A DNA stretch of 41,104 nt from a virus (taxonomy: Duplodnaviria > Heunggongvirae > Uroviricota > Caudoviricetes). Both the position numbers and the translations under genes were made by a program. This document shows positions 1,419 to 16,789 of the stretch, piece after piece. The notes below the pieces were generated by a model, which worked only from the letters and a program-made list of their open reading frames with translations, was not told where the DNA came from and did not search any database. The stretch lies in IMG/VR virus record IMGVR_UViG_2617270992_000014; one strand, 5' to 3'. Within the stretch, counting starts at the first letter, position 1. Every line of letters begins with the position of its first letter.

Positions 1419-3833
1419 TTAAAAATCAGCCTGACTCGGGATCAGTTTTTGCCAGATAGCTGAAACTTGTTTTGCCTGGTGACGTGCATCATCGAGTGCA
1501 TTGTGAGGTACACCTTCGAATGGAATAGTCATTCTGACATCAAAGCCAATGGAATTTCCCAGTTCAACAATTGTGCGTACATCGCGATCGTTGCAGTAGC
1601 GCCACGGGCAGGGGATGCCCTGTCGTTCATATGAACGGCGTAAAATTACGTTGTCGAAGTTGGCTCCATTTCCCCAGACTCGAACATAAAATCCACAGGA
1701 GTTTTCATCTATAAATTCCCGCAATTGCAGTAGTGCATCATCTAACGGAATTTCATCGGTCAGAATGGCAGATTGCGCCTCACGTGATTGCTTAAGCCAC
1801 CATTTAATGACGTCACGATCAATGACTCCGCCAGCAGTATCCAGATCGATGGTCTTGCTAAACTCCGGCCCCATCTCTCCGGTCTGCGGATCGAAAAATA
1901 TTGCACCTAATGAGATAATCGGGGCGTCGGGATTTTTTCCCATGGTTTCAAGGTCGATCATCAGGTGGTGCCGCACTCTGCTGGTGGATGTGATAACGTG
2001 ATGACCGTTCACCGCAATTAAGGGATCTGCTGTCTCGCCAGTTTCACTATCGCTGGCGTGGTCCTGAGCGCTGCCAGCATTCTCATTGTGCGGATGTTCA
2101 GCGCCTTCCATTTCCTCCGGATCATTTTCCTTAGCTTCAACCTGATTCTCTTCATCGAATATTTCTTGGTATGTTGCGTCGCCCATCACCGCACCACAGT
2201 CAGGGCAGTTACCCCCGCCAGTCTGGCCGCAGGCATTGCAGGCTATTTCCGGTTCCTGTTGCACTACTGGCTCAGGTTGTTTCACATCCGGGCTGTTTTT
2301 TTCCGTTTCTGGCTGGTTCTGGTACACAGAATCGCGAGTCTGGATCCCCTTCACCCATTTCGGATCGTTCGGGTCGCTAATCCCTGCAACAAATTCACCA
2401 CGTGATACTGCAAGCAGCTGATTGGCGTCAGGCTGGCTGATATTGGCTGCCTGCATAATTTTGTTTACTTCGTCAGCGGTAACTTTTACCTGATTAACCG
2501 GATCTATCTGTGCCTGAGCATCCAGCGATTGCGTGTCCTGGCGATGTTCAGTTGCATTCGGTTCCATTGTTTCAGCCGTTGCCTGTTCATCTGCCATTGC
2601 GTCAGACGGTTGTGATTTTTCCACATTATTTTTTTCTTCTTCTGTTTCGCGTTCAGCAGCCAGTTCGCGGTTAACTTCTTCCAGGATATCTTTTTCCGGC
2701 GTATGCCGGGCAGCTGTGAGAGTTTCCTTGCTGGGGTTCTCGTGATCAGTCTCTGTTAAATAGGCGTTGATATACCCCTGAAGACGTCCCGGGTAATGAT
2801 AAAACTCAGGGTGTGCGCTCCGGATAAGTGCAAAAATAGCGGCGCGGGAATAATCCAGGATACCCGGGATTGCGCGAAGTGCTGCGGACCATTCTTTGAA
2901 CGGACTTTCTTTCTTCCGGACGATTTCTTTTGCGCGACGATAAACGCTGCCCGGAATTTCATAAATATTAAAATCCATCGGAAGTGTGGCCGCTGCAATC
3001 TCCACATCCAGCGTATCGAAGGTGTGTACTAAATTCGGATTGCGATCGGTTTTGTTCCCTCCACCGGCATTAGCACCGGAAGCCGTGCGGGTGATGCGTG
3101 AAACACGATTTCCTTTCATCCACTCTTTTGTCAGCAGACCGCGATCGGTGTAGTCAGCGCCCAGGTATGCTTCGAAAAAAGCAGTCATCAGTCCCAGGTC
3201 TGAATTACCAGGATTAGGGAAAACTTTGTCAGTGTCACGAACCAGTTTGTGGAGATCGCGAATTTCCAGCGGTTCGAGTTGCGCTGCTTTATTTGAGATG
3301 GCCAGCGCGGTAACGGCGGGAAGTTTTTCATCCTGTGCGTTATGTAATGCGCGTAGTTCGCCCCGCGAAACGTGTGTGATCGGTTTTTCGCTGCCGTGCT
3401 GTGCCAGCCATCGAACAGGCAGAATCTGACCTGAAACCGGCAGGAGCATATTCTCCTCAATCTCAGCCATGTCTTCGCCGTTGACGTTGGTATTGTCAGT
3501 GCTGGCTGGTTTATCCTGAACAGAGGGCGAGGGCGCGATAAGCACCATTGTGATACCATCTTCCCCGCCTTTTTCGTATCGGTTGCAGAATTCGGTATCA
3601 AACACGCCTTCCGGAGGAAGGTCATTCACAACGGGTAAATGGACGCGAACAGGTTTTTTAAAATCCTCTTCGTCAAATCCTGCATCGTCCATTGCGACAA
3701 CACCGCGTGATATTGCAACCGATAATTTTTTTGCTGTGCGCCAGTAAAAACCGCCTTTAATCCCAAGACGTTTTCTGACTTTGTCATTTTTGGCTTCGTA
3801 ATACAGTGCAATTTCTTCTTTATCAGTGCTCAT
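1419..3833 (-). CDS. Large multidomain early protein with C-terminal DEDDh (DnaQ-like) 3'-5' exonuclease domain, central Cys4 zinc-ribbon and acidic low-complexity linker
   Basis: 804-aa ORF. C-terminal about 190 aa shows motifs IDLETMG, NGANFDNVIL and HNALDDARH consistent with DEDDh exonuclease motifs I-III. CNACGQTGGGNCPDCG is a zinc-ribbon motif. N-terminal about 550 aa unrecognised. Confidence 0.7.
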   Translation of the reverse strand: MSTDKEEIALYYEAKNDKVRKRLGIKGGFYWRTAKKLSVAISRGVVAMDDAGFDEEDFKKPVRVHLPVVNDLPPEGVFDTEFCNRYEKGGEDGITMVLIAPSPSVQDKPASTDNTNVNGEDMAEIEENMLLPVSGQILPVRWLAQHGSEKPITHVSRGELRALHNAQDEKLPAVTALAISNKAAQLEPLEIRDLHKLVRDTDKVFPNPGNSDLGLMTAFFEAYLGADYTDRGLLTKEWMKGNRVSRITRTASGANAGGGNKTDRNPNLVHTFDTLDVEIAAATLPMDFNIYEIPGSVYRRAKEIVRKKESPFKEWSAALRAIPGILDYSRAAIFALIRSAHPEFYHYPGRLQGYINAYLTETDHENPSKETLTAARHTPEKDILEEVNRELAAERETEEEKNNVEKSQPSDAMADEQATAETMEPNATEHRQDTQSLDAQAQIDPVNQVKVTADEVNKIMQAANISQPDANQLLAVSRGEFVAGISDPNDPKWVKGIQTRDSVYQNQPETEKNSPDVKQPEPVVQQEPEIACNACGQTGGGNCPDCGAVMGDATYQEIFDEENQVEAKENDPEEMEGAEHPHNENAGSAQDHASDSETGETADPLIAVNGHHVITSTSRVRHHLMIDLETMGKNPDAPIISLGAIFFDPQTGEMGPEFSKTIDLDTAGGVIDRDVIKWWLKQSREAQSAILTDEIPLDDALLQLREFIDENSCGFYVRVWGNGANFDNVILRRSYERQGIPCPWRYCNDRDVRTIVELGNSIGFDVRMTIPFEGVPHNALDDARHQAKQVSAIWQKLIPSQADF

Positions 3834-12242: not shown

Positions 12243-12453
12243 AAACGGTTTGCGGGAAAAAGGGAGTTAAGTAAAATTGCTGCGGGTGCTTGAGGCTATC
12301 TGTCTCAGGCATGAACACCAAAAGGCAGATAGAGAAAAGCCCCAGTTAACATTACGCGTCCTGCAAGACGCTTAACATTAATCTGAGGCCCAATCTATGT
12401 CTCACAAATGTAGGTTAGCCTCTTACGCGCCGAAAGGCAAGGAGAAGCAGGCT

Positions 12454-12609
12454 ATGAAGCAGCAAAAGGCGATGTTAATCGTCCTGATCGTCATCTGTTT
12501 AACCGTCATAGCGACGGTACTGGTAACGAGGAAAGACCTCTGCGAGGTACGAATCCGAACCGGCCAGACGGAGGTCGCTGTCTTCACAGCTTACGAACCT
12601 GAGGAGTAA
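12454..12609 (+). CDS. hok: Hok/Gef-family type I toxin (small membrane peptide)
   Basis: MKQQKAMLIVLIVICLTVIATVLVTRKDLCEVRIRTGQTEVAVFTAYEPEE is near-identical in pattern to HokD/RelF-type toxins as recalled; AAGGAG upstream. The track ORF extends upstream to 12397 in the same frame. Confidence 0.8.
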   Translation: MKQQKAMLIVLIVICLTVIATVLVTRKDLCEVRIRTGQTEVAVFTAYEPEE

Positions 12610-13651: not shown

Positions 13652-14710
13652 GTGCGGGTATTAGTGACTCCTGAAATTGCTCACCGTCTGGGGATTGTAC
13701 TTTTCAGGCCCGGTCCTGATGCGATGCCTTTGTTTATGCAGGGGCGTGTGCTGGTGGAGCCGGAACCCAAAAGCATGCGAGGTTTGCCATCCGGAGTCGT
13801 TCCTGCCGTTCGCCAGCCGCTGGCGGAGGATAAATCATTACTGCCATTTTTCAGCGATGAGCGGGTAATTCGTGCTGCCGGTGGCACTGGTGCACTGTCT
13901 GACTGGCTCCTGCGTCATGTTAAATCCTGCCAGTGGCCTCATAGTGACTACCATCACAGTGAAATCGTCATACATCGTTATGGTACCGGAGCGATGGTGT
14001 TGTGCTGGCACTGCGACAACCAACTGCGTGACCAGACATCCGAATCACTCGAGCAACTTGCTCATCAAAATCTGTCTGCATGGATGATTGACGTCATACG
14101 CAATGCAATGAATGGTACGCAAGAGCGGGAATTATCGCTGGCTGAGTTATCCTGGTGGGCGGTCTGCAATCAGGTGGCGGGCGCGCTACCGGAGGCAGTA
14201 TTACGTCGTTCGTTGGGATTACGTACGGAAAAAATCCGCTCTGTGTACCGTGAGAGCGACATCGTACCGGGAGAACAGACAGCCACCAGCATACTGAAGC
14301 AGCGCACAAAAAATATTGTGCTACCGCCTCACGCCCACCAGCAACAGAACTCACCACAGGAAAAGACGGTGGTCAGCATTGTCGTTGATCCGGAGTCTCC
14401 GACTCAGTATCTCCAGCGTCAGAAACCACAGCGGGAAGAGATGCCCGTATACACGCGCTGGGTAAAAACGCAGAAATGCATGACTTGTGGCAATCAGGCA
14501 GATGATCCGCATCACATCATTGGCTATGGACTGGGAGGGATGGGAACAAAGACTGACGATTTGTTTGTTATTCCGCTGTGCCGTAAATGTCATAACGAAC
14601 TGCACGCCGGGGTAAAAGATTTTGAAGAAAAACACGGCAGCCAGCTGTTGTTGCTGATTCGTTTTTTAATGCACGCGAGAAATTCGGGTGTCCTGAAGTG
14701 GAAAGCATGA
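13652..14710 (+). CDS. DUF968-family protein (YdfU-like) with C-terminal HNH-like Cys/His motif
   Basis: 352-aa ORF; C-terminal CMTCGNQADDPHHIIGYGLGGMGTKTDDLFVIPLCRKCHNELH; sits immediately upstream of rusA as DUF968 genes do in lambdoid prophages (from memory). Confidence 0.7.
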   Translation: MRVLVTPEIAHRLGIVLFRPGPDAMPLFMQGRVLVEPEPKSMRGLPSGVVPAVRQPLAEDKSLLPFFSDERVIRAAGGTGALSDWLLRHVKSCQWPHSDYHHSEIVIHRYGTGAMVLCWHCDNQLRDQTSESLEQLAHQNLSAWMIDVIRNAMNGTQERELSLAELSWWAVCNQVAGALPEAVLRRSLGLRTEKIRSVYRESDIVPGEQTATSILKQRTKNIVLPPHAHQQQNSPQEKTVVSIVVDPESPTQYLQRQKPQREEMPVYTRWVKTQKCMTCGNQADDPHHIIGYGLGGMGTKTDDLFVIPLCRKCHNELHAGVKDFEEKHGSQLLLLIRFLMHARNSGVLKWKA

Positions 14711-15076
14711 ATGACTGAACGCATAGAATTTGTTTTGCCTTACCCGCCGACGGTGAACACCTACTGGCGACGTCGTGGCAGTACATATTTTGTATCAAAA
14801 GCCGGTGAGCGTTATCGCCGTGATGTGGCGCTCATTGTTCGCCAGCAGCGACTGAAATTGAACCTGTCCGGAAGGCTGGCAATAAAAATTATTGCAGAGC
14901 CGCCGGATAAGCGCCGTCGGGACCTGGACAATATTCTGAAAGCACCACTGGATGCACTGACACATGCGGGGCTGCTCATAGACGATGAGCAGTTTGATGA
15001 AATCAATATTGTGCGCGGTCAGGTCGTTCCTGGTGGTCGGTTGGGGATAAAAATCACAGGGCTGGAGTGCGCATGA
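14711..15076 (+). CDS. rusA: RusA Holliday-junction resolvase
   Basis: 121-aa ORF; PYPPTVNTYWRRRG, RRRDLDNILKAPLDAL and GGRLGIKIT correspond to conserved RusA segments as recalled. Confidence 0.85.
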   Translation: MTERIEFVLPYPPTVNTYWRRRGSTYFVSKAGERYRRDVALIVRQQRLKLNLSGRLAIKIIAEPPDKRRRDLDNILKAPLDALTHAGLLIDDEQFDEINIVRGQVVPGGRLGIKITGLECA

Positions 15077-15762
15077 ATAACCAGTATTTACAGTTTGTGC
15101 GTGAACAGCTCATTATCGCCACCGCCGATTTGAGTGGAGCAACAAAAGGTCAGCTTGAAGCCTGGCAGGAGAATGCCATGTTTGATACAGGGCGTTACAG
15201 GCGTAAAAAAATCCGGTACCGCGATGAAGTGACCGGAAAAATGATCACGCGGGATAATCCACCAATCCCGGGGAAACAATCGCTGGCGAAGGGGACGTCA
15301 ATTCCTCTGGTAAGTCAGGTTGAGTTTTCGACATCATCATGGCGACGGGCAGTTCTGTCTCTTGAAGAACATCATAAAGCCTGGTTGTTGTGGTGTTACA
15401 GCGGAAATATTTGCTGGGAACACCAGATCGCGATAACACAGTGGGCATGGGAAGAGTTTAAGGCTCATTCTGGCAACAGGAAAATTGCAGAGAAAACACG
15501 GGAACGCCTGAAAAAATTAATCTGGCTGGCGGCGCAGGATGTGAAGAGCGAGCTGGCTGGGAGTGAGACTTATGAATATCAGGAACTGGCTGAATTGATG
15601 GGGGTTGCTAAATCCACATGGACAGAGACATACCGACCTCGCTGGGAGATTATGCGTGACTGTGTTACAGGCCTGGACAAAGATGCGCTTATATCGGCAA
15701 TGCACTTACGTTCACAACAAAAGGTATCTAATACCAGGTTAAATATTGCAAAACCGAACTGA
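15073..15762 (+). CDS. Late-gene antiterminator Q (82/Qin-type family)
   Basis: About 230-aa ORF directly downstream of rusA (ATGA overlap), followed by a strong intrinsic terminator as expected for the pR'/tR' region. Family assignment from size, position and partial motif recollection. Confidence 0.7.
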   Translation: MNNQYLQFVREQLIIATADLSGATKGQLEAWQENAMFDTGRYRRKKIRYRDEVTGKMITRDNPPIPGKQSLAKGTSIPLVSQVEFSTSSWRRAVLSLEEHHKAWLLWCYSGNICWEHQIAITQWAWEEFKAHSGNRKIAEKTRERLKKLIWLAAQDVKSELAGSETYEYQELAELMGVAKSTWTETYRPRWEIMRDCVTGLDKDALISAMHLRSQQKVSNTRLNIAKPN

Positions 15763-15826
15763 AAAGTGTATTTTGCGCATAAATCTGATATTTTGCCGAT
15801 TTTGTACGCGATGGCAAAGTAAGCAA

Positions 15827-15852
15827 GCCCCGCCGCTGAGCGGGTTTTTTTA
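15827..15852 (+). terminator. Intrinsic terminator downstream of Q (tR'-like)
   Basis: CCCGC-CGCTGA-GCGGG hairpin followed by a 7-T run, about 65-90 bp after the Q stop. Confidence 0.65.
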
Positions 15853-15897
15853 TGCCTGAAAAACGGTACAAGGGCGTTAAACACGCTGGAGGATTAA

Positions 15898-16134
15898 ATG
15901 GAAGAAAAGCAGCCTTATATTTTCAATCCGGGTATGTCCATGACAGAACTGCAGACATGGCTGGAAAGGCAATCGATGGCAGTATCTTGTTTTAATAAAC
16001 TGGTTGAGGAAAAAGCCGCTATCGAGAAGCGGCTTGAGGAGATTAATCGATATCTTGATTTTTACGCATCGCGAATTTCTGAAGAAAAGTTGAGTTTTGT
16101 TCAGGAGCCCAGTCCTGATCTGACCAGTGAGTAG
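15898..16134 (+). CDS. Hypothetical coiled-coil-like small protein
   Basis: 78-aa ORF with GGAGGA 6 nt upstream of the ATG; 3' end overlaps a convergent minus-strand ORF. Confidence 0.4.
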   Translation: MEEKQPYIFNPGMSMTELQTWLERQSMAVSCFNKLVEEKAAIEKRLEEINRYLDFYASRISEEKLSFVQEPSPDLTSE

Positions 16135-16513
16135 TATCAGTATGTGTGACAGGCAAATTAAGCCCAGTAAGAAACTCGGCAGCTTCTTCGCACATATTAT
16201 CTGGCGTCAGGTACTCTGCAATAACAAAAAGACTGTCACGCAGGGAGAGTTTGCGAATATCTTCCAGCTTCCATTTTGTTATCCTGAAAATCATATGGTG
16301 TAGCGCCTTTCTGTTATCCAGGTGGTAGTGAAGGTGCGCATTTTTTCTTCGGTATTCTTCCAGTACGCATTCCAGCGTAAAAATCTGTCCGATTCGATAC
16401 CACGCTTCACGGTACTGCTGAATGGTCATGTCGAGTAAGACATGCTCTGGAATGTTATTGTTCTGGCATACCTTGAGCTTTATTGCTTGTAGTAAATTGG
16501 AGTAGTCACTCAT
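16043..16513 (-). CDS. Hypothetical protein encoded opposite to the late operon
   Basis: 156-aa ORF, AGAGG 5 nt upstream of the ATG on the minus strand; AT-rich; no recognisable domain. Confidence 0.5.
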   Translation of the reverse strand: MSDYSNLLQAIKLKVCQNNNIPEHVLLDMTIQQYREAWYRIGQIFTLECVLEEYRRKNAHLHYHLDNRKALHHMIFRITKWKLEDIRKLSLRDSLFVIAEYLTPDNMCEEAAEFLTGLNLPVTHTDTTHWSDQDWAPEQNSTFLQKFAMRKNQDID

Positions 16514-16628
16514 AAAAACCTCTGGCTTGATGTTGTTACTTTTGGCGAATTAACGATATCAAAAACGAAAAGTGTAGTTAATACAATGCAATACAATGGA
16601 AGCATGATTTACTTTGCGCTTTGACCCT

Positions 16629-16652
16629 GGGCTCGCTACGGCGGGCCTTTTT
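16629..16652 (+). terminator. Terminator-like hairpin inside the Q-to-lysis island
   Basis: GGCTCGC-TACG-GCGGGCC (7-bp stem with one G-U pair) followed by TTTTT. Confidence 0.4.
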
Positions 16653-16789
16653 CATATTCGCGCCACGCCCGGCGCACATCAAAAACCACAGAGCCTTTCA
16701 GGGGTGAGCTTACGGGATGGTCAGTGTGACTTTCTCTGTGGGCTGGTCACCTCCGGGCGCAGGCTCACCCACTAAAAGGAAAAGTCACG

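Follow-up and report, generated by a model that had tools for sequence, protein, structure and literature searches.

The 41,104-nucleotide (nt) stretch of viral DNA held in IMG/VR as record IMGVR_UViG_2617270992_000014, referred to here in its full length as the window, is a lambdoid prophage in which a DUF968/NinG-like gene, a RusA gene and the gene for the Q antiterminator are followed by a pair of convergent genes, a TerB-family gene and then the holins and endolysin. The convergent pair is the subject of this analysis. Its plus-strand member (the small gene) is the first open reading frame (ORF) of the late operon and its minus-strand member (the large gene) lies antisense to that operon, with the 3' ends of the two sharing a stretch of coding DNA (Table 1). 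The comparative data described below support well the view that the two genes form a conserved convergent pair with doubly coding DNA at the start of the late operon, and one which has not previously been described.

The pair had been pointed out in a first-pass annotation of the window, and the coordinates, strands, gene lengths and 92-bp shared stretch given there were all reproduced. Both of the ribosome-binding sites that it named are present, with AGAGG lying 5 nt before the minus-strand ATG (16513–16511) as described, while the GGAGGA of the small gene was found to be spaced 4 nt from its start codon and not 6 nt. The pair had also been judged by eye to be AT-rich, and a windowed calculation agreed with this impression. 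The GC content of the pair is 42.9% against 51.3% for the window, which places it at the 6th percentile among 616-bp windows, with the Q gene at 47.8% and the TerB and holin genes at 52.8–54%. Such a low GC content is typical for an accessory insert.

Table 1. Positions of the convergent pair, its expression signals and its neighbours in the window
Feature	Position	Strand	Remarks
Small gene, 78 amino acids (aa)	15898–16134	+	phrog_3501; first ORF of the late operon
Large gene, 156 aa	16043–16513	−	ECs1072 family (NCBIfam NF033230, phrog_5286); antisense to the late operon
Doubly coding overlap, 92 bp	16043–16134	both	
Putative PR' late promoter	15746–15774	+	TTGCAA, 17-nt spacer, TATTTT; TGTAT core common to related loci
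tR' intrinsic terminator	15829–15852	+	CCCGC-CGCTGA-GCGGG then T7; between PR' and the small gene; terminator scan
Shine–Dalgarno GGAGGA, small gene	15888–15893	+	read from the sequence
Shine–Dalgarno AGAGG, large gene	16519–16523	−	read from the sequence
Predicted extended −10 promoter of the large gene and conserved stretch	16538–16561	−	TGaTATCGT at plus-strand 16553–16561
Second late-strand intrinsic terminator	16629–16653 (or to 16648)	+	terminator scan; just past the promoter of the large gene
Q antiterminator gene, start of the late operon	15067–15762	+	Pfam PF06323 Phage_antiter_Q, E 5.6e-89; phrog_304
DUF968/NinG-like gene	13652–14710		upstream context
RusA gene	14711–15076		between the DUF968/NinG-like gene and Q
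TerB-family ('tellurite resistance') accessory gene	16790–17215	+	Pfam TerB, E 5e-7; phrog_632, E 1e-64

Two protein families and their genes

The small protein was found to match phrog_3501 (E 1.9e-20, residues 2–75 on profile positions 4–77 of 85). The large protein matched the NCBIfam entry NF033230, 'ECs1072 family phage-associated protein', along the entire profile (residues 2–145 on positions 1–142 of 142) with a score of 157 bits (E 3e-46), passing the curated cut-off of 70, and it also matched phrog_5286 (E 5.4e-13). The earlier statement that neither protein has a recognisable domain holds as far as Pfam and PADLOC are concerned, but both belong to named families of unknown function. 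Searches of PADLOC, Pfam and NCBIfam with the two proteins revealed nothing past these families, and a Pfam scan of 52 full-length members of the large-protein family gave no consistent domain. An exhaustive HMMER search returned 79 cluster representatives (50% identity) of this family, mostly of 140–175 aa with the others being shorter partials, and a profile search returned 170 protein clusters of the small protein in the Enterobacterales. With tblastn, neighbouring matches to the two proteins were obtained in Salmonella phage ST64B and a number of Klebsiella phages, among others, with identities of 43–58%.

Outside the overlap, which leaves approximately 60% of the small gene and 80% of the large gene, the ratio of non-synonymous to synonymous substitution rates (dN/dS) was 0.05–0.11 and 0.05–0.16, respectively, and codon positions 1 and 2 were far more conserved than position 3 in this part of each gene across nine divergent loci. 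Taken together with the family matches, this indicates that both ORFs are real genes, as the first-pass annotation had proposed. It had also been considered that homology evidence might expose one of the ORFs as a chance frame lying opposite a real gene. Such a reading could draw on the observation that annotators usually call one partner only, with the NCBI pipeline PGAP calling just the large gene in Escherichia coli TUM1881 and the records of ST64B and KPP5665-2 holding just the small gene, and on a protein-database search with the small protein as single sequence, which returned one cluster only. The latter result, compared with the 170 clusters obtained by profile, is explained by this same habit of annotating just one of the two genes. 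Both ORFs are conserved across divergent loci and both show coding-type constraint (dN/dS of at most 0.16) in DNA that belongs to one of them alone, and on these comparative data the chance-frame explanation is already refuted, with next to no probability left to it.

The large protein is predicted to be all-alpha and soluble, with a maximum 19-residue Kyte–Doolittle value of 0.42 and a grand average of hydropathy (GRAVY) of −0.56. Foldseek searches with its model gave no match at E < 2 in PDB or BFVD, and PDB sequence searches with two profiles of the family were empty. A fold resembling DnaA domain IV was considered and rejected, as hhalign against the verified domain IV sequence of E. coli DnaA gave a probability of 1.2%. 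The sole invariant residue of the wider family, W135, sits in the overlap. The literature found on ECs1072 consists of a single microarray table, with none found for sb50, the PHROG numbers or NF033230. In that microarray study, ECs1072, the namesake of the family, was detected in uninduced cultures of O157 Sakai (PMC2241611), which is a weak indication of expression; a DNA-similarity search of E. coli genomes did not locate ECs1072 itself.

The small protein is acidic (isoelectric point 4.65), with a maximum 19-residue Kyte–Doolittle value of 0.17 and a GRAVY of −0.63. Its AlphaFold2 model (mean predicted local distance difference test score 80.7) consists of one long helix at residues 15–62 with a disordered tail behind it, and a conserved N-terminal QPYxFNPGM motif (peptide QPYFFNPGM) lies ahead of the helix. 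In ST64B (NC_004313, L002), the corresponding gene sb50 (36146–36505) is annotated as encoding 119 aa, with the conserved start giving 85 aa. The annotated start is probably too far upstream, ahead of the terminator hairpin. The convergent 144-aa ECs1072-family gene is without annotation in the same record.

Conservation and double coding of the overlap

To describe the arrangement across phages, two sets of loci were used, 87 fetched via the large protein and 82 fetched via the small protein, and overlap lengths were taken from 71 unique intact modules. The small gene was convergent with the large gene in all 87 loci of the first set, with a start-to-start distance of 616–619 bp. These loci reach down to 35% identity in the large protein, with those of Serratia, Photorhabdus and Limnobaculum at 35–39%, and the genera holding both genes are Escherichia, Salmonella (ST64B), Klebsiella, Citrobacter, Serratia, Photorhabdus and Limnobaculum. 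Within the second set, a full large gene was present in 68 of the 82 loci and a truncated remnant in 13, with one locus running off the contig end; none with enough room lacked every trace of the large gene. The overlap was never absent from the intact modules, having a length of 71, 83, 89, 92, 95, 101, 107, 110 or 113 bp. Each of these lengths equals 2 modulo 3, resulting in a fixed frame relation in which codon position 1 lies opposite position 1, position 2 opposite 3 and position 3 opposite 2. The convergent 3' overlap to which the first-pass annotation drew attention is thus found far beyond what chance would give, and can be regarded as a conserved and selected feature.

The module also occurs in different surroundings. 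It sits behind three unrelated Q families, namely PF06323 in the window, PF06530 in Superficieibacter (L187) and PF03589 in E. coli M056 (L189). In another phage type (L175–177) it lies beside a terminase gene, with a homologue of the small protein (hmmsearch E 2.5e-10) and a convergent overlap of 89 bp. Distant relatives of the large protein were seen close to the immunity regions of prophages or on a contig resembling a plasmid (L180 3001–3862, L179 570–1302 and L172 407–1022), and their 3' ends are overlapped by 176–197 bp by longer convergent ORFs of 200, 161 and 113 aa, respectively. The ORF of L179 was rejected as a homologue of the small protein, having a merely suggestive N-terminal motif and an hhalign probability of 0.75%, as was that of L180, which matches a different family (phrog_23433). 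No relationship to the small protein could be demonstrated for these longer candidate partners (113–200 aa).

Within the overlap, the conserved C-terminal residues of both proteins are encoded, DWxPxxNSxFL for the large protein and EEKLSF.QEPSP for the small protein, and comparison of the loci indicates that this DNA is truly doubly coding with both frames under constraint. Where two sequences had the same residue, the codon was also the same in 77% of pairs inside the overlap as compared to 47–50% outside (Mann–Whitney p 1e-5 and 8e-5). Identity at wobble positions increased from 0.29–0.47 outside to 0.62–0.72 inside for the large gene and from 0.40–0.52 to 0.72–0.74 for the small gene, and the proportion of synonymous differences (pS) decreased from about 0.5–0.7 to 0.1–0.3. 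The frozen wobble bases of the large gene face the second codon positions of the conserved small-protein residues (E)GKLSFP. Among lineages of 35–58% protein identity, an invariant Leu is encoded by CTT throughout, and TCA is used in each of the lineages that have Ser at its position (eight of nine).

It should also be noted that quasi-palindromes lie in the overlap (L017 3395–3440 and equivalents; 16070–16110 in the window), these being perfect in loci of Salmonella and Citrobacter type but degenerate in the window. The palindrome CTGGGATCCCAG encodes the tripeptide WDP in both proteins, and AAGGAAAAC-TCA-GTTTTCCTT forms a hairpin.

Expression signals and proposed expression of the pair

Late control in lambdoid phages follows a PR'-tR' layout known from lambda, 82 and 21, and candidates for both elements precede the small gene. 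The putative PR' matches 8 of 12 consensus positions and falls below the reporting level of the promoter scan. The upstream regions of related loci can be aligned with it, and the sequence offers weak grounds for identifying 15746–15774 as PR'. A tR'-type hairpin with a run of T was found 20–45 nt upstream of the ribosome-binding site of the small gene in loci of E. coli, Salmonella, Klebsiella, Serratia and Photorhabdus, and in nearly all lineages some terminator hairpin stands ahead of this site. In a Limnobaculum locus (L007, ~3640–3700, minus strand), the tR'-type hairpin is replaced by three direct repeats of ATCAGAAAACGACTGAT. No promoter-like site was detected between the tR' hairpin and the ATG of the small gene. 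As it is without a promoter of its own and is placed behind tR', the small gene is expected to be Q-dependent and late.

A motif of TGnTAnnnT was found 40–50 nt upstream of the start of the large gene in 61 of 65 unique upstream regions, as compared to 5% in shuffles. This extended −10 (TGaTATCGT in the window) is followed by a conserved stretch, TTAATTCGCCAAAAG / GATTCGCCAAAA, and the region is alignable across genera. Given this conserved promoter of its own, as predicted, the large gene should be transcribable with the late operon silent. Hairpins equivalent to the second terminator of the window also occur in related loci, with this terminator closing the module on the side of the lysis genes. 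The terminator scan detected no minus-strand intrinsic terminator past the 3' end of the large gene. The searchable literature yielded no expression data for the locus.

The timing of expression, the coupling by antisense and collision, and any functional link between the proteins are inferred from these sequence features and from lambdoid biology. It is moderately probable that the pair is a mobile two-gene lambdoid module, the halves of which are expressed in opposite phases (prophage and late lytic) and are coupled by convergent transcription. As the first gene of the late operon, the small gene would be made when Q lets RNA polymerase pass tR', late in lytic growth, and the large gene would be transcribed while the late operon is silent, either in the prophage state or in early infection. 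Once Q is active, terminator-resistant late transcription would cross the entire large gene in antisense and would silence it through colliding polymerases and base-pairing between the two RNAs. Conversely, transcription starting at the large-gene promoter would work against leaky read-through at tR'. The first-pass annotation had described antisense transcription through the partner as obligate, and this follows from the layout, as the large gene with its own predicted promoter lies wholly inside the late unit on the opposite strand and such transcription is unavoidable once the late operon is on.

With regard to other elements around the locus, no Rfam family covers the pair itself. In some related prophages, tRNA genes (L017 2284–2588 and L024 2575–2881, both minus strand) occupy the slot that separates the pair from the lysis genes, and in the window this slot holds the TerB gene and no tRNA gene. 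Strong matches to STnc100 (RF02076) were obtained on the late strand just 3' of the pair in Klebsiella- and Salmonella-type loci (L003 2684–2879 and L017 1688–1921, both minus strand; 108 and 74.5 bits, respectively). The window has a sub-threshold remnant of this RNA at 16561–16659 (plus strand; 20.3 bits, E 0.074), overlapping the second terminator. A true type I toxin–antitoxin system, hok/sok, lies 3.5 kb upstream of the pair (12284–12609, plus strand), with a match to Rfam sok (RF01794) of 118.8 bits at 12284–12459 and a Hok-like ORF, MKQQKAMLIVLIVICLTVIATVLVTRKDLCEVRIRTGQTEVAVFTAYEPEE, within 12397–12609.

Relation between the partners and comparison with known systems

Mutual regulation, for example of a toxin/antidote type, had been suggested for the pair by the first-pass annotation, and the toxin/antidote relation is the part of its reading that is not supported. 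No toxin, antitoxin or defence model of PADLOC or Pfam was matched by either protein. A type I system is expected to have a small hydrophobic membrane peptide, and the maximum Kyte–Doolittle values given above show that neither protein is hydrophobic; it is also expected to have a non-coding antisense RNA as antitoxin, and neither strand is a mere antisense RNA since both encode proteins under purifying selection. The genes are convergent and not co-directional as in type II systems. Loss of the antidote with the toxin intact should not be tolerated in an addiction system, and here either gene was found to be lost alone. The 13 viral loci with a truncated large gene, for example those of Salmonella phage 118970_sal3 and Escherichia phage SKA5, have lost its 5' half and promoter and retain an intact small gene. 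Of 5426 complete E. coli genomes, 101, among them that of enterotoxigenic E. coli H10407, likewise have an intact small gene next to a truncated or deleted large gene. Seven unique modules, mostly of Klebsiella type, carry a nonsense or frameshift mutation of the small gene beside an intact large gene (L001, L013, L023, L045, L049, L055 and L072). Among these is E. coli TUM1881, the only close E. coli relative of the window, in which W21 of the small gene has become a stop codon. In lineages that have lost the large gene, all changes but one in the small protein lie in its distal tail (residues 70–85), with residues 1–69 including GKLSFP unchanged save for Q6P in L133. A distant large-protein relative that occurs on its own was seen in a chromosomal context (L170). 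The separate decay of each gene argues against an addiction-type toxin–antidote pair and leaves room for a looser functional link.

Several explanations of the arrangement other than a module expressed in opposite phases were weighed. Two unrelated accessory genes could have come to abut by chance, with an ancestral run-on overlap persisting as undoing it damages a protein, and with no regulatory meaning. The separate loss of each gene and the lone chromosomal relative would fit with this, as would the low confidence or disorder of both overlapping tails in the models and the confinement of small-protein changes to residues 70–85 after large-gene loss, which suggests that this part of the tail is dispensable for the small protein. 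However, the overlap is never shorter than 71 bp in the 71 unique modules, EGKLSFP of the small protein is conserved within the overlap even after loss of the large gene, the wobble positions of the large gene opposite to it are frozen, and the pair moves together into different phage contexts, all of which makes such an origin unlikely. Convergent transcription through the partner would in any case be a physical result of the layout, whatever its origin. It was also considered that the overlap is conserved as a nucleic-acid element, that is, an RNA hairpin or palindromic protein site for processing, pausing or as an operator, and not for double coding. The near-perfect palindromes CTGGGATCCCAG and AAGGAAAAC-TCA-GTTTTCCTT of the Salmonella- and Citrobacter-type loci point in this direction, the latter folding into a hairpin of 9 bp (z-scores of −1.8 to −2.4 for L017 and L007), with one compensatory pair of changes in L007. 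Both palindromes are degenerate in the window, however, and the inner stem is not preserved in most lineages, in which arms such as GCATTCC, CCGTTCC and ATTTACC face an invariant GGAAAAC. Folding z-scores are ordinary (−0.5 to +1.1) for the window, Klebsiella and Photorhabdus versions, and each frozen wobble base is accounted for by a conserved residue on the opposite strand. As the inner stem is not maintained and these z-scores are ordinary, the constraint is ascribed to double coding, and an element of this kind is considered very improbable.

A functional two-component system can be envisaged as well, either toxin/antidote-like or consisting of a defence effector and its off-switch, in which the late small protein would neutralise the lysogen-expressed large protein with reinforcement by the RNA overlap. 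This is held to be rather improbable, and the same applies to its more specific form of a prophage switch, in which an ECs1072-family effector expressed in the lysogen for defence, exclusion or restraint of late genes would be turned off by Q-driven antisense and the late small protein, with the overlap locking the two into inheritance as a unit. In its favour are the strict co-occurrence of the genes over deep divergence, extending to the terminase context with its 89-bp convergent overlap (L175–177), and the travelling of the module as a unit behind three different Q families. The small protein, which is acidic and consists of a single helix and a conserved peptide motif at its N-terminus, has a shape common in protein inhibitors. 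Against this, neither the two proteins nor the 52 family members had a match in PADLOC, Pfam or PDB. Seven modules (TUM1881 and six others) combine a broken small gene with an intact large gene, which sits badly with a toxin left unneutralised. Moreover, deletion of the large gene leaves the small gene intact, the convergent layout is unlike that of type II systems, and there is no hydrophobic product of type I toxin character.

The proposed module expressed in opposite phases was also compared with known systems. Morons and late-region cargo of lambdoid phages include bor of lambda and the stx and tRNA genes downstream of PR' in Shiga toxin (Stx) phages. The pair is similar to these in being an AT-richer, terminator-bracketed insert in the late region with its own predicted promoter and expressible from the prophage, and related loci carry tRNA genes, STnc100 or a TerB gene at the corresponding position. 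The large gene in particular shows the moron features of a conserved extended −10 motif as predicted promoter, flanking terminators, a GC content of 42.9% in the pair against 51.3%, and a location in the late region. The pair differs from morons in that the module is fixed, with one half an in-line late gene and the halves sharing doubly coding DNA. Antisense control is known from the oop RNA of lambda, which is antisense to the 3' end of cII mRNA, from paQ, which is antisense to Q, and from the interference of face-to-face promoters in coliphage 186. These likewise involve convergent transcription in a phage regulatory region, where it separates lysogenic from lytic expression, and the transcript of the large gene would be aimed at tR', PR' and Q. 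However, oop and paQ are non-coding, while the transcript here would be the mRNA of a conserved protein of about 150 aa with an overlap that is coding on both strands, and regulation is only inferred for the pair. Type I systems such as txpA/RatA and hok/sok also have convergent genes with RNAs pairing over ~70–120 nt, but the small hydrophobic toxin and non-coding antitoxin RNA expected of them are both lacking in the pair.

The antisense overlapping genes of enterohaemorrhagic E. coli (laoB, asa and others) are ORFs of recent origin that occur in a narrow range of taxa and lie within an older gene (PMC5810103, PMC6294744, PMC9927249). The pair resembles these in having protein-coding frames on opposite strands, one of which is missed by annotation pipelines, and differs from them in that both partners are old, the overlap is at the 3' ends only, and both frames are under purifying selection across a bacterial order. 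In the Gifsy-1 isrK-orf45-anrP region, a short promoter-proximal RNA, IsrK, lies in the same place after the antiterminator gene (antQ) and ends at a terminator 3' of that gene, with read-through expressing a small first ORF (PMC4825925). The pair thus has the same position after an antiterminator gene, but orf45 is conserved as nucleotide sequence and not as protein, a co-directional antirepressor gene follows it, and the accessible text mentions no convergent overlapping gene (PMC4825925). The PR'-tR' leader of the window (15777–15850, plus strand) was tried as a candidate isrK (RF01394) and rejected, with a full-length match of 16.6 bits (E 0.81) against a gathering threshold of 50. By analogy, the closest parallel to the module appears to be a combination of lambdoid moron and phage antisense control, but it is a member of none of these classes.

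Long convergent overlaps are usually written off as annotation errors. The one described here is conserved across the Enterobacterales with both of its frames under constraint, and current pipelines annotate one partner, whichever is chosen. The module is common in prophages of Klebsiella and Salmonella (ST64B) and is therefore genetically easy to test. As it lies at the most tightly regulated spot of lambdoid phages, being first after the Q-dependent terminator, it may have a bearing on how the lysis genes are kept silent and on how accessory genes are switched off in lytic growth.

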